Positions 7,841-14,386 of a DNA stretch of 64,000 nt are shown here, piece by piece. Positions within the stretch are counted from its first letter, which is position 1, and every line of letters starts with the position of its first letter. The notes beneath the pieces are model-generated. The model did not search any database. It was not told the DNA's origin and saw only the letters and a list, made by a program, of their open reading frames with translations. Source of the stretch: an uncultured Eggerthellaceae bacterium (GTDB lineage: Bacteria > Actinomycetota > Coriobacteriia > Coriobacteriales > Eggerthellaceae); assembly GCA_910589125.1 (NCBI GenBank), contig CAJURX010000009.1:22240-86239 (forward strand), read 5' to 3'. Made by a program: the position numbers and the translations under genes.

Positions 7841-8692
7841 TCAGGACCTCTTGCGGCGCTTGATGACCAAGAATCCCATGACGCAGAGCGCAGCTGCCAC
7901 CACGCAAAGCAGGCTCACGACCACCGGAACGAGCGGGTCGCCCGTGCGAGAGAGGTCGCCACCATACTGGATATTGCGCTGCGGCTGGCCATTCGGATCG
8001 CCACCGTCATCAGGGCCCATGATGGGATCCTCATCCCCACCTGGGGTGGGAGTAGGATCCTGGCCGTCATTGCCACCTGGCGGGGTGGGCTCTGGATCCC
8101 CATCCGCCCTCCAGTCGCCTAGATACGCTGCAAAGGGCTCGCTCAGATACACGCCAGCTGCATCATCGGCACGCGCGCTCGTCACGGTGTGGAGCGCATA
8201 CACGCCGACCTGATCGACAGCGTCAGCGCCATCGCTCCCCTCAGCGACGCCCTCATCCATCACAGGCACATCCACGATGACCTCAGCGCCGGAGCTCATG
8301 GCCGTATCCAGGCCGAGCGCGATGCGGCCCACCTGGAACGGTGCCGCGAAGAGGTCATGCCCCCCTGCCACATACAGCGTGATGCGCGTCTTGTCACCCG
8401 CCGTGCTGTAGGAAGGCTCATGGATGGAGGTGTTGTTCAGCACGTGGTCGCTGAACTGGAATGAGACCTGCACGGCATCGGGCGCATCAGCGTTGACATC
8501 CACATCCATGATGAGCGAGAACGCGCTGACATCGGTGCCCTTGCCATCGAGCGTGACGTCGATGGCATCGCCGCTCTGCGAGAAGCTTATCTCGCTCTCC
8601 GCCACAGCCCATGCCGCACCTGCGGTGCAAAGGCAGAGCATGACTGCAGCCAGGAATCCGAGCAGCGCCCTTCTTGTTCTTGTCATGATCAT
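7841..8692 (-). CDS. sortase-anchored cell-wall protein with cohesin-like module
   Basis: Signal peptide [29 protein letters not shown], then a ~120-aa beta-rich module, then a Pro/Gly/Asp linker. The C-terminal sorting signal is LSRTG (7940-7954) + hydrophobic helix + KRRKRS. The AAGGAG SD favours ATG 8692 over the GTG at 8713. Confidence 0.7.
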
Positions 8693-8725
8693 CGTCTGCA
8701 TCTCCTTATTCACCAGCTGCGTTGC

Positions 8726-11700: not shown

Positions 11701-14386
11701 TGTTCAGGCGCGTCTCAAGGGCGCTGATGCGTGCCTCGTCCACGCCGTCAGCAAGCTTGATGTGCATCTCGTCAGCGTAGAGCGCGTTCACATCGTCTTC
11801 GATGCTGTCATAGCCATGGAAGCGCATCTCGGCGATGTCGATCAAGCGGACATGGCGCTCCATGCCGATGAGGACCTTGTCGGCACGCAGGCCGCCGTCG
11901 ATCTTGACGAGCGTGTAGGTCCTGCCGTTCGCGCACTTCTGCTGCGTGAACGAGACTCCTGAGACGGGCTGCCATGCAGAGCCACCCGTGGATGCATGCA
12001 CCCGCACGCCGCTGTAGTCGATGTTCTGGGACGATGCCGCATAGGAGATGAATCCGATCTCCTTCACGCCGTCGAAGGTGACCTCGACGCCGTGCTTGCC
12101 GGCATTGTAGGCTGAGCCGAAGTCCCAGTCCTCCTTCTTGGCATAGGAGGTGTAATCGTCATCGAACAGGCCGAGCGCCGTGCCTGCATTGCCGTCGATC
12201 GCGCTGTCCACCATGGATGCGCTGATGACGCGCGCGGTCGTAATGCCCGTGAGGTAGCGCCCGTTGGCATCCTTCTTGTTCACCAGCTTGTAGTTCGGCA
12301 GCTCCGCAGGGGCGATGGTGGTGGTCTCTGCGCTCACGATCTGGGACGGATCGCTCTTGCCGATCTCATTCACACCTGAGACGAACACCTCATAGGTGGT
12401 CCTGTCCTCAAGCCCGCTGATCTGGCAGCTGCTCGAGGTGATGCCGGACTTCTCGGTCCAGGTCGCGTCACCCTCCTTGCGATACGAGACGATGTAGGTG
12501 TCCGTATCGGTCATGGCCTTCCAGCCGACGTTGATCATCTTGTAGCCACCTGAGACCTTCACGCTCTCGGGCCTATCCGGGCGCTTGGTGGCCTTGGGCG
12601 TGACGGTGACGGCATTGCTCCAGCCGCTGCGCCATTCGCCATTGGTGGACTGCACCTTCACCGTGTAGGTGTGGTTGTTCTCCACCTTGCCCTTGTTGCC
12701 ATGCTTGAAGGACGTCACCTGCATGGTGGTGTTCTTGGTGGACATGATCTGCTCTTTGCCGTTCTCCGACACAGAGACCTCATATCCCGTTACATTGGGC
12801 TCGGCGTTCCAGCTGACCGTGAACTCCTTGCTGCCCGGCGTTGCCGTGACGTTCGTCGGGATGTTGAGCTCGGGAGGTGCGATGAGGTCCTCCGTGCCAT
12901 TCAGGAACTCGACCGAGGAGATCTCAGCCAGGTTGAGCTTGCCATCAGAGGCATTGGTCTTGGTCACCTTGATGGTGACCTTCTTGATGGCGATCTTGCT
13001 GCCGAAGTCGATGATGATGTTGCCAGAGCCGTCGATGGTGGCCTTGGCAGATGCCGCATAGGCCTTCTCGGGTGCGAGCCCCAGGAATGCCGCCATCTGC
13101 ACGAGCGCGCTCGCGATGCCCGTAGGGGCGAACTCAGCATCGAGGGTCTGCTCATTGCCCGCCTCATCAAGGTAGGTGACCTCGACGGTGCCCTCCGTGA
13201 CCGCGTGGGGATGGAGCTGGGAGATGCCATCATCGGTCCTGCTCAGAGGCGGCTTGATGGTGATGCAGCCGACCTGCTCGCCATTGAGCTGATCATGGAG
13301 GTTGTCCAGCACGATGGTGGCAGGGTTGTCAACGCTGATGGGCTGATCGTTGGTAGTGACCATCTTGAGGGAGGCGTTCTCATCAGGATTGCCCACCACT
13401 TCGCTGACATCCACGATCTGGCTGTCAGCAGGGATGGTGATGTTGTCGCTGACGGTGACGCCCGTGACGCGCGGCTTCGGTGTCACGTTGGAAGAGACCT
13501 GATCGCGGCCGTAACCCTCTGCCAGGACCTGGAGGTCAGCGAGCGTGATGCCGTCCGCGCCCGTCAGGTCGCAGCGCGGGTTCGCTGCAGCATCTGCGCC
13601 AGATTCCAGCGCACCGATGAGCGCATCCACGTCATCATCGTTGATGGCGCTATCCCCCGTCACATCACCGTAGTAGATGATGCCCGTCTGGGTGCTGCTC
13701 TCAGCGCGATCGAAGGTGTTGAGCTTCACCGTGTAGGCGCGGGGGACATCCGCATCCACATGGATGGCCTGCGCATAGGTGGCATAGCCGTCCGCTTCGA
13801 TGGCGAGCTCGTAGTCACCAGGCTCGACGTTCACATAGGTATAGGACCCGCGATAGCCAGCGCCGGCCGCCGCGGGCTTGATGTACTGGAAGCCACGCCC
13901 TGACAGGGAGATGTCGAATTGGGGAGGCTCGCCCGTATCGAAGGGCTTGGCATCCGTGATATCCACATGGATGATGCTCTTGGCAACAGCGCCCTCACCC
14001 CCCCCATCGGATTCGGAGGGCAGCTTCGTGGAACCGGAGCCGTCGCCCTCGGTGCTGCCATCAGCATCGTCTGCCGGAGCCGACCCGTCATCGCTGGCCT
14101 GCTCCTCAGACGACGTGCCCTCTTGGGTGCCCTCATCATTCGTGGCGCCCTCCTCAGATGGCGCATCCCCTGCGCCGTCGGCGGAAGGAGCATCCTCACC
14201 AGGCACGGGTTGAGCACCATCCTGCGCCTGCTCCTCCTGGACGGGGTCGCCCGCGTCCAGCTCATCTGCGAATGCGGGGATGCCGAACATGGAGACCGAA
14301 AGCGCCAAAGCCGTGAAGGCTGAGACCGCTTTGCGGGCACATGAGGTCATCATCGCATTCCGCTCTTTCATCGTGGTCCGTTTCAT
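8726..14386 (-). CDS. secreted multidomain M60-like (enhancin-type) zinc metallopeptidase with dockerin, two FN3 and F5/8-type-C-like modules
   Basis: Signal peptide ...ALALSVSMFGIPAFA. The zinc site is GWGSAHEIGHNINNGRYALAE (HEXXH + downstream E, 10550-10597). The dockerin-like duplicated loops are GDVTGDSAINDDDVDAL and CDLTGADGITLADLQVL (13511-13681). Two FN3-like repeats span aa ~505-690, discoidin-like segments lie either side of the catalytic region, and there is a PEGA/CarboxypepD_reg-like module (EPGDYELAIEADGYATY). Confidence 0.85.
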   Translation of the reverse strand: MKRTTMKERNAMMTSCARKAVSAFTALALSVSMFGIPAFADELDAGDPVQEEQAQDGAQPVPGEDAPSADGAGDAPSEEGATNDEGTQEGTSSEEQASDDGSAPADDADGSTEGDGSGSTKLPSESDGGGEGAVAKSIIHVDITDAKPFDTGEPPQFDISLSGRGFQYIKPAAAGAGYRGSYTYVNVEPGDYELAIEADGYATYAQAIHVDADVPRAYTVKLNTFDRAESSTQTGIIYYGDVTGDSAINDDDVDALIGALESGADAAANPRCDLTGADGITLADLQVLAEGYGRDQVSSNVTPKPRVTGVTVSDNITIPADSQIVDVSEVVGNPDENASLKMVTTNDQPISVDNPATIVLDNLHDQLNGEQVGCITIKPPLSRTDDGISQLHPHAVTEGTVEVTYLDEAGNEQTLDAEFAPTGIASALVQMAAFLGLAPEKAYAASAKATIDGSGNIIIDFGSKIAIKKVTIKVTKTNASDGKLNLAEISSVEFLNGTEDLIAPPELNIPTNVTATPGSKEFTVSWNAEPNVTGYEVSVSENGKEQIMSTKNTTMQVTSFKHGNKGKVENNHTYTVKVQSTNGEWRSGWSNAVTVTPKATKRPDRPESVKVSGGYKMINVGWKAMTDTDTYIVSYRKEGDATWTEKSGITSSSCQISGLEDRTTYEVFVSGVNEIGKSDPSQIVSAETTTIAPAELPNYKLVNKKDANGRYLTGITTARVISASMVDSAIDGNAGTALGLFDDDYTSYAKKEDWDFGSAYNAGKHGVEVTFDGVKEIGFISYAASSQNIDYSGVRVHASTGGSAWQPVSGVSFTQQKCANGRTYTLVKIDGGLRADKVLIGMERHVRLIDIAEMRFHGYDSIEDDVNALYADEMHIKLADGVDEARISALETRLNTADADGNYYPFKTVVQMDIDFARQLLADEKAGLSELIRVHTDISSAADSGKNLGMGGLNSWQPLGKVAAAGDQLVLYASKRNSRTNSSVQIYIGQQYPESSDAPSYGGTFQANKRIVYSVPEKIQVKGKEHGGPLYAQYVGNDPNEEWYIRVMGGHDIATLDLHNVTDHETRVQKAEQYITELDESLSLLNASKGSEDAHRAAHLAESKLVVDKVEQDTINPSVDCDYNERHCIHNATELMTDTMLYSVPATQAARSCTGSTLRERAESLITHMDGSEQMLKLFYQHKGLMEPGEGVAKTNELSSQHLNIRLMQMFAGAFMYAAGNHIGVDFPESGNFAILRPISDAATAPGGTKQSGDGFYFGWGSAHEIGHNINNGRYALAEVTNNYFAQICKMVNEGTTRFSYDSVYERVTSGAVGRTGGVATQLAMYWQLMLAHDANEVYTLYSSYDQLKANRFFARVDGYARNPGSAPAPGKVELVCNAGESQNIIRLASAAAEKDLSDFFISWGLVPNADTERYVSQFPKEERALQYVNDDAVKWIRANPSAAQVKGVDMTAVSLSQSNSKVTLDMSTKDAAYNASLIGYELTRVYYASGKPQKEVVGFVRADENGGGTFVDDAAHLGNRAVHYEVKAVDKFLNYSAAAVTEQKKLDGNGRFAPTEWSVDTNMVVAEGTQEQVSKEAEVAEPECPSEMEGNAPKPIESVLAGEKDYLGYTVASGSTPAADPYVLIDMRKTNPVVSVRYTPGDGAALSDYVIETSVNGINFTTVAEGTFDIGSEGYADVFFTGKNEQGSPNNWICSETARYVRITAPGKAGAEVSIKAIDIFGPSGDNIDFTSVQGQEDIKAIGTLSADFQLDADDPNQKIPAGSIIFTGAVKGNPAYNVVVLYDADGTIVGGSTIVDGEEILNAEQVLLADVPEGSLIGDTADGRWVYWIAPDADLPAKVRAELYRVNDAFTNEGQRLVADTMFIDVPAKADLPSITLKSDSQGQ

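Follow-up and report, generated by a model that had tools for sequence, protein, structure and literature searches.

To our knowledge, cohesin-dockerin systems are known almost only from the cellulosome-type complexes of clostridial Firmicutes. Exceptions include the toxins of Clostridium perfringens, the amylosomes and the recently proposed 'mucinolysome'. In cellulosome-type systems, the known role of the dockerin is to bind a cohesin. The locus described here appears to encode a stripped-down version of such a system, in which a single enzyme, with one dockerin and one cohesin-fold socket, is specified by two adjacent genes. It lies in a 64,000-nucleotide stretch of DNA (the window; contig CAJURX010000009.1, positions 22,240 to 86,239) from an uncultured Eggerthellaceae bacterium, and comprises a gene for a giant M60-like peptidase followed by a gene for a small partner protein. 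That the peptidase is displayed on this partner through cohesin-dockerin pairing is considered probable (about 0.65). The domain identities, the fold of the partner module, the pairing of the genes and the swapping of anchors are all observed, and from these we infer the contact. Together, they suggest a minimal and widespread plug-and-socket form of display in gut bacteria.

The functionally closest proteins described so far are the sortase-anchored single-cohesin proteins ScaE (Ruminococcus flavefaciens), Sca2 (R. bromii) and cSca5 (Limousia), which fix dockerin-bearing components to the cell wall. The 'mucinolysome' of Limousia combines dockerin-bearing peptidases with a sortase-anchored scaffoldin, and the cohesins of C. 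perfringens lie within other secreted enzymes, thus linking enzymes to each other (PMC12997984). For M60-like peptidases, Nakjang et al. (2012; PMC3267712) tabulated two proteins with a PF00404 dockerin, with no partner described; this table entry is the only link between M60-like proteins and dockerins found in the literature search.

Gene Pairing

In the window (62-63% G+C), the open reading frames (ORFs) of the peptidase (1886 aa; 8726..14386) and the partner (283 aa from the ATG at 8692; 7841..8692) are arranged head to tail, in this order, on the minus strand, as are the features of the pair and its promoter-like and hairpin sites given below. The pairing holds far beyond this genome. When the C-terminal 220 residues of the peptidase were used to scan metagenomes, 324 relatives were obtained and 80 loci kept, with 28-70% GC. 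The partner gene lies directly 3' of the peptidase gene, on the same strand, in all 80. A hidden Markov model (HMM) of the module detected 77 of these partners; those of L091 and L096 scored below threshold and were recognised by inspection, while L087 is cut and frameshifted at the end of its contig, where the partner has begun. Conversely, a giant M60 peptidase is encoded directly upstream in each of the 16 loci found through the partner (L001-L016). Eleven of these (L001-L011) are close relatives, all from metagenome-assembled genomes (MAGs) labelled 'uncultured Eggerthellaceae', and the distant pairs differ widely in base composition (L012, 54% GC; L013, 64%; L014, 39%; L015, 47%; L016, 41%). 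A profile search of genome contigs with the narrower alignment A1 had returned six Eggerthellaceae MAG loci. Carriers of the cassette are found among the Eggerthellaceae of the mouse and human gut and among many gut bacteria of low GC content, and the neighbourhoods of the pair differ among L001, L012, L013 and L016.

The gene pairing is obligate in these loci. An earlier reading of the window made from its letters and translations (the sequence-only reading) had proposed a dedicated two-gene cassette, and this is borne out from both sides. It had also named the routine occurrence of peptidase homologues without the partner gene as an observation that would undo its proposal; this is clearly not what the 80 loci show. 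The window itself encodes exactly one dockerin and one cohesin-fold module.

The Cohesin-Fold Module of the Partner

The partner protein gave no match in searches of Pfam, NCBIfam or PDB sequences, in agreement with an earlier Smith-Waterman re-check that had found no cohesin signal in it. A word-indexed search returned 12 clusters of homologues and an exhaustive HMM search of 1.84 billion representatives returned 21; the family was defined by the alignments A1, A5 and A7. One match of the exhaustive search, P0037 (1072 aa, E = 1.3e-4), was judged spurious, being a repetitive protein of unrelated architecture, and was left out. Nearly all homologues are 230-300 aa long and share one layout, consisting of a signal peptide, a module of ~165 residues, a low-complexity linker, an L-x-x-T-G-D motif, a hydrophobic helix and a basic tail.

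In the window's protein, the module spans residues 37-204 (8102..8605) in the numbering of the 290-aa mechanical ORF. A first AlphaFold2 model, built from 11 sequences, reached a pLDDT of only 67.9, yet cohesins already ranked first among its structural matches; the final model, from 26 sequences, reached a pLDDT of 90.5 and a pTM of 0.85. Its core strands comprise positions 4-11, 14-20, 26-39, 45-51, 61-69, 72-80, 90-99, 106-112 and 158-163, and DSSP adds a short strand at 138-142. The model displays the nine-stranded beta-jelly-roll that characterises cohesins, with moderate similarity. In Foldseek comparisons with the PDB, ranks 1-14 are occupied exclusively by cohesins, at a probability of 1.00. 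The top match is 2jh2 of C. perfringens, and 2vo8, 2w1n and type II cohesins of A. cellulolyticus are also within these ranks. The best template-modelling score (TM) belongs to CaCohA2 of C. acetobutylicum (TMq 0.51, TMt 0.58; root-mean-square deviation, rmsd, 4.2 Å), and TM reaches 0.52 for the ScaE structure 2zf9, another of the fold matches. The non-cohesin matches at ranks 15-20 have TM values of at most 0.38, although the integrins (ranks 19, 24 and 37; TMq 0.36-0.38) come within the range of several top-ranked cohesin matches.

As judged from the model, the module has a cohesin-like fold that is too divergent for sequence models, which does not imply membership of the cohesin family. The resemblance to a cohesin claimed by the sequence-only reading is thus upheld for the fold, where the 14 best PDB matches are all cohesins, and fails for sequence models. 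A 2026 study (PMC13463774) shows that cohesins of divergent sequence in general escape sequence-based detection but can be found with AlphaFold, a situation that matches the present one.

The Dockerin Segment of the Peptidase

The dockerin-like module occupies residues 239-288 of the peptidase (13523..13672) and comprises two F-hand repeats, DVTGDSAINDDD and DLTGADGITLAD, each followed by a helix. Type I dockerins (PF00404) are recognised by two repeats of ~22 residues, each with a 12-residue Ca loop (D or N at positions 1, 3, 5 and 9; D or E at position 12) and a helix. This duplicated architecture is present in the window's copy, with a degenerate second loop: the ligands of loop 1 (DVTGDSAINDDD) are D1, T3, D5, N9 and D12, whereas loop 2 (DLTGADGITLAD) is canonical only at D1 and D12 and has A at position 5. 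The family consensus, in contrast, is canonical (GDVNGDGxIDxxD ... DLNGDGxVDLADLQY). Pfam reported no dockerin in the whole peptidase. The excised segment scored 15.7 bits with Dockerin_1 (E = 0.018; profile positions 1-52 of 57), the gathering threshold being 22.9 bits; the low score is due to the degenerate second loop.

The relatives are more telling. All four close orthologues match Dockerin_1 (best E = 6.2e-8), and the PDB chains retrieved by a profile of the four orthologous segments were nearly all dockerins, with 2ccl_B, 2y3n_B, 1daq and 2mte among them. A local HMM found exactly one dockerin segment in every one of the 48 family members, always at about residues 135-335. Among ten divergent members, Dockerin_1 was the top Pfam match in all; five score above the gathering threshold, with 29.6-43 bits, another three come to within 1.5 bits of it, and the matches of the remaining two are weak. 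At the level of the family, these profile matches identify the segment as a dockerin. The two Ca-loop-like segments that the sequence-only reading had taken for a duplicated type I dockerin signature, GDVTGDSAINDDDVDAL and CDLTGADGITLADLQVL, are thus confirmed at residues 240-288 (about 13523-13669), and its interpretation of them is sustained by the family.

The M60-Like Peptidase

Judged by its domains, the client enzyme is a secreted gluzincin of the M60-like family. Peptidase_M60 (PF13402) matches residues 1259-1405 with 34.0 bits (cut-off 25.8), and the zinc motif HEIGH (residues 1264-1268; 10583..10597) lies inside both this match and the alignment with ZmpB and ZmpC (residues 1258-1486). 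With E1279 in AEVTNNY as the candidate third zinc ligand, the HEXXH...E site is intact. The closest solved relatives of the catalytic region found by phmmer in the PDB are ZmpB, ZmpC and ZmpA of C. perfringens (E = 2.7e-10 to 1.5e-4, residues 1254-1486), which are O-glycopeptidases that cleave mucin-type glycoproteins. Domains of glycan-binding type accompany the catalytic region, namely two of the fn3 family and one F5/8 type C domain resembling family 32 carbohydrate-binding modules (CBM32; residues 1596-1709; 9260..9601; 47.9 bits, cut-off 28.2). From these relatives and the F5/8 type C domain, the enzyme is a putative O-glycopeptidase or mucinase.

At the N-terminus, the signal peptide (residues 1-41, ...SMFGIPAFA/DE; 14264..14386), whose GIPAFA is kept in orthologues, precedes an acidic linker of low complexity (residues 42-135). 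Just N-terminal of the dockerin lies a beta-sandwich resembling PEGA and CarboxypepD_reg domains, with its best stretch at residues 179-222 (13721..13852). An excised 232-aa segment scored 23.5 bits with PEGA (cut-off 20.8) and 26.4 bits with CarboxypepD_reg, below the cut-off of 32.3; in the whole protein both models stayed under their cut-offs (20.2 and 23.3 bits). The C-terminus, ...LPSITLKSDSQGQ, has no hydrophobic tail. As the sequence-only reading had noted, the peptidase combines a signal peptide with the absence of any anchor of its own, there being no hydrophobic tail, no sorting-signal-like tail and no lipobox. Lipoprotein anchoring can be dismissed for the peptidase and the partner alike, as neither signal peptide contains a lipobox.

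An identical protein (P0044) is found in NCBI MAGs, and the full-length query gathered 48 clusters of 26-100% identity. A profile search with the N-terminal region (alignment A9) returned a single fragment. The last 220 residues (8726-9385), which contain the motif VRAELYRV[ND]NAxTNEGQRLV, are the most conserved part of the family and have no Pfam assignment. Across ten sequences, this segment has 48 invariant columns, and the most distant of them is 47% identical to the window's protein. The partner might make contact with the peptidase at this C-terminal domain instead.

Exchangeable Anchors

The C-terminal part of the partner starts with a flexible stalk rich in Pro, Gly and Asp (residues 205-253; 7955..8101), which varies in length and composition among homologues, and ends in a tail resembling a sorting signal (7844..7954). 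The latter has a tripartite organisation, namely LSRTG (residues 254-258; 7940-7954), a 24-residue hydrophobic stretch (7862-7933) and KRRKRS (7844-7861), directly followed by the stop codon. These three elements, all noted in the sequence-only reading, are present, and LSRTG aligns with LPATG and LAxTG of homologues. A regular-expression scan of all ORFs of the window found a single C-terminal tail of this kind, that of the partner.

Across 69 distinct variants, the N-terminal module of the partner is constant while the C-terminal part is exchanged. A TG-type sorting signal is present in ~53 of the 69 (LSxTGD, LPATGD, LAxTGD, LVTTGD, GVDTGD, xKTGD, IKTGQ and others), and 11 carry a transmembrane helix, some with a long basic tail. 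In L057 (partner at 663-1979), choline-binding or cell-wall-binding repeats replace the sorting signal (Choline_bind_3, E = 3.7e-31), and the partner of L019 has a Big_2 domain with no obvious anchor. The partner of L044 (4618-5307 of the low-GC metagenome contig ODYJ01001897.1) ends in a canonical Dockerin_1 domain (E = 1.4e-11) with neither a membrane nor a wall anchor. This joining of a cohesin-fold module to a dockerin recalls an adaptor scaffoldin, and it implies that the same genome encodes another anchor, bearing a cohesin, at a different site. The peptidase homologue P0084 (31% identity) carries the partner module fused to its C-terminus (residues 1752-1850; module HMM E = 2.3e-9), and SLH repeats come after the module. 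This protein, known from one contig (Logan assembly), contains a remnant of the partner signal peptide and is either a Rosetta-stone fusion or a read-through from an assembly error. An anchoring adaptor would be expected to look like this, with a socket that stays the same and a tether to the envelope that can be exchanged.

Some partner linkers have features of their own. Those of L020 (1615-2715), L042 and L093 contain helical repeats (...EYTEESWN...) that partially match NCBIfam models in the C-terminal parts of LnbX, HypBA2 and ZmpB, and look like FIVAR-type modules. Modules of this type accompany cohesin-dockerin modules in C. perfringens. Eight kept loci among L079-L092 (four distinct sequence variants) combine GVDTGD with a transmembrane helix and a basic tail. 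A curated 'GVDTG sorting domain' model already exists in NCBIfam (NF058571.1, which matches P0030), so that non-LPXTG signals of the x-x-x-T-G type form a recognised class in some gut Firmicutes; the LSRTG of the window may belong to the same broad class.

Proposed Mechanism and Alternatives

In the proposed mechanism, the two genes would constitute a single operon for the production and display of a surface enzyme. Once secreted, the partner would be attached to the envelope, through a covalent bond made by a sortase or, failing that, by its C-terminal helix. The dockerin of the peptidase, ~240 residues from its N-terminus, would plug into the cohesin-like module of the partner, and the enzyme would thereby be held at the cell surface in a 1:1 stoichiometry. 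In cohesins, it is the 8-3-6-5 sheet that binds the dockerin. Contact between dockerin and module, its dependence on Ca, processing of the partner by a sortase and mucinase activity of the enzyme are thus all predictions. Such a system would represent a known mechanism in a new, sequence-divergent form, with physical binding as its presumed basis.

Several observations speak against this proposal, and some of them nourish its rivals. The window's dockerin stays under the Pfam gathering threshold; its DLTGADGITLAD deviates from DLNGDGxVDLAD at positions 3, 5, 6 and 9, of which 3, 5 and 9 are ligand positions, and one Ca site may have been lost in this lineage. The Pfam Cohesin model (PF00963) matched the window's module at no E value up to 10 and none of 34 family members (26 plus 8 low-GC), and the family profile found nothing significant among PDB sequences, the cohesin 5m2s_A reaching only E = 0.47. 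The likeness of fold is moderate (TM 0.45-0.58, rmsd 4-7 Å, Foldseek E 2e-4 to 1e-3), and pilins, CBM3 and integrin domains, which are related beta-sandwiches, stand lower in the same list. P0084 keeps its N-terminal dockerin despite having an SLH anchor of its own, which suits a purely anchoring role less well unless the two were fused only recently or the contig is misassembled. As for the anchor, the partner of the window, with its non-LPXTG motif, has no TIGR01167 match and no score with the Gram_pos_anchor model of Pfam; the sortase signature TLxTC is found neither in the 64-kb window nor in loci L001-L016, and the window contains no sortase gene. The main rival holds that the partner tethers the peptidase via another surface, such as the conserved C-terminal domain, while the dockerin binds another cohesin encoded elsewhere in the genome or a host or glycan ligand, or serves only as a structural Ca element. 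The retained dockerin of P0084, where the module is already fused in cis, and the degenerate second loop of the window would suit this, as would the strong conservation of the C-terminal 200 residues of the peptidase (58% mean column identity in alignment A8, whose members are 47-82% identical to the window's protein there); moreover, pairing and anchor swapping demonstrate a functional link and not the surfaces that touch. It would, however, make a coincidence of the presence of a cohesin-fold module and a dockerin, each once per cassette, both of which have been kept over 26-100% identity and 28-70% GC, and the window offers no second cohesin-like or dockerin gene; we regard it as unlikely. 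Less likely still is that the two proteins do not bind at all, the partner being an independent, co-expressed surface protein (for example an adhesin or a glycan-binding module bringing the cell to mucus, or a shield or an inhibitor protecting the surface of the cell itself) and the peptidase being released to the medium. Co-transcription by itself is no proof of a complex, no sequence model calls the module a cohesin, and the CBM3 and pilin or adhesin domains of the Foldseek list resemble cohesin-like beta-sandwiches. Against this stand the adjacency of the two genes in 80 of 80 loci from different phyla and neighbourhoods, the existence of a fusion of both proteins (P0084) and the partner of L044, whose C-terminal dockerin makes it resemble an adaptor scaffoldin rather than an adhesin; the peptidase, in addition, is devoid of an anchor and yet bears a dockerin, that is, a cohesin-binding module.

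A separate alternative concerns the tail of the partner, which might be a plain membrane anchor rather than a sortase substrate, so that the complex would sit on the membrane instead of being covalently attached to peptidoglycan. This is doubtful, though it has more in its favour than the two previous alternatives. LSRTG is non-canonical, and the silence of TIGR01167 and Gram_pos_anchor and the missing TLxTC signature fit a membrane protein, as do the 11 of 69 variants with only a transmembrane helix, some of which have long basic cytoplasmic tails. The T, G and D of L-x-x-T-G-D are, on the other hand, nearly invariant in the partner family, and homologues have canonical LPATGD or LAQTGD at the aligned position. 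While the LPATGD proteins P0024 and P0027 score below the TIGR01167 cut-off, P0030 (LAQTGD) passes it with 21.6 against 15.9 bits, and so do five of the seven low-GC variants. Housekeeping sortase genes, moreover, are usually unlinked to those of their substrates. Sortase anchoring of the partner is therefore plausible on the pattern of its C-terminus. A plain membrane anchor, the reading to fall back on, would leave the display model as it is.

Organisation of the Locus

All the features described by the sequence-only reading were recovered where it had placed them. The start of the partner gene follows the database entry P0001, a 100% identical protein of 283 aa starting at ATG 8692, whereas the mechanical ORF of 290 aa begins at the first GTG (8713). 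With the ATG start, a gap of 33 nt separates the partner from the stop codon of the peptidase gene, and a Shine-Dalgarno sequence (AAGGAG, 8702..8707) lies 9 nt 5' of the ATG; both the gap and the partner's own ribosome-binding site had been reported in the sequence-only reading.

Its strong promoter and its terminator hairpin fared less uniformly. A promoter-like TTCAAA-18-TATAAT (14426..14455) is present ~40 nt upstream of the peptidase start codon in a consensus scan, although as a single match it does not rise above chance (2 found, 1.6 expected in the region). Its position, however, is kept, as a TATAAT or TACAAT -10 box is found at the same relative position 5' of the orthologous peptidase genes in six loci, distant ones included (L001, L003, L004, L012, L013 and L016). 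Between the partner and enolase genes, RNA folding predicts a strong stem-loop (7749..7775) with a 13-bp stem (dG -30.3 kcal/mol; z = -3.4 relative to shuffled sequences). It lacks a U tract and was not reported by the terminator scan, and is a possible terminator or attenuator.

The genes 3' of the pair are housekeeping genes coding for enolase (6387-7682, minus strand), MoeA (5097-6383) and a MogA-like MoCF biosynthesis protein (4594-5136). The mechanical ORF of enolase (506 aa) is too long at its 5' end, the real start being at ~7682 (MAMIVDV...). The enolase/MoeA/MogA-like order is kept in Eggerthellaceae relatives and not in L012, L013 and L016, and the cassette therefore sits in different chromosomal contexts. 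As these downstream genes vary and the strong hairpin separates the partner and enolase genes in the window, enolase can be excluded as a member of the unit. Directly 5' of the peptidase gene lies an ORF of 1562 aa (14665-19353, minus strand), whose orthologue in L001 has BcrAD_BadFG and DUF2229 domains, as is typical of an activator ATPase of the 2-hydroxyacyl-CoA dehydratase type with another domain fused to it. Between this orthologue and the peptidase gene, L001 has a gene for a formate/nitrite transporter, which the window lacks.

Significance and Comparison with Known Systems

What is new here is a cohesin-fold family not captured by current models, in a dedicated cassette with an M60-like peptidase, present in Actinomycetota and Firmicutes and common in gut metagenomes. 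Current domain models do not see the socket module, and genome annotation consequently misses the system. If binding is confirmed, the cassette would offer a testable explanation of how little-studied gut Actinobacteria retain a mucinase on the cell surface. It would then also add a new family of cohesins to surveys based on fold, and supply a natural anchor-swap series showing how display modules are re-tooled between types of cell envelope. The evidence leans, by a modest amount, towards a broader proposition, according to which the partner module founds a previously unrecognised, sequence-divergent cohesin family and, with the N-proximal dockerin of one subfamily of giant M60-like peptidases, makes up a minimal and self-contained cassette of enzyme and socket; this cassette has reached many Firmicutes as well as the Actinomycetota of the gut (Eggerthellaceae), and the socket freely swaps its tether between a sortase signal, a transmembrane helix, choline-binding repeats, SLH repeats and a dockerin. 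If this is true, the display of mucin-type peptidases by cohesin and dockerin would be widespread, though overlooked, in the microbiota of the mammalian gut rather than a speciality of cellulosome-like clostridia.

The partner shares with the ScaE-type proteins a signal peptide, one cohesin-fold module, a linker and a C-terminal signal of the sortase type, and the role proposed for it is the same. It differs from them in that its module escapes the Pfam Cohesin model, and in the organisation of the system, which is a 1:1 two-gene cassette instead of a multi-scaffoldin network, with one M60-like peptidase as the only visible client. In addition, the host is an actinobacterium (Eggerthellaceae) and not a clostridial firmicute, and the sorting motif is LSxTG. 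The non-cellulosomal pairs of C. perfringens, in which X82 cohesins and dockerins occur on glycoside hydrolases (2jh2, 2vo8 and 2w1n), likewise have nothing to do with breaking down plant cell walls and belong to enzymes directed at glycoconjugates of the host mucosa, as is proposed here. The same organism is the source of ZmpA, ZmpB and ZmpC, the closest solved relatives of the catalytic domain. Here, in contrast to C. perfringens, the cohesin-fold module is carried by a dedicated small anchored protein encoded beside its client. Finally, the peptidase has Peptidase_M60, the HEXXH...E site and an F5/8 type C domain of the CBM32 type in common with M60-like/enhancin peptidases such as ZmpB, ZmpC, BT4244 and AM0627, but is set apart from them by its far larger size, its N-proximal dockerin and its obligate partner gene.

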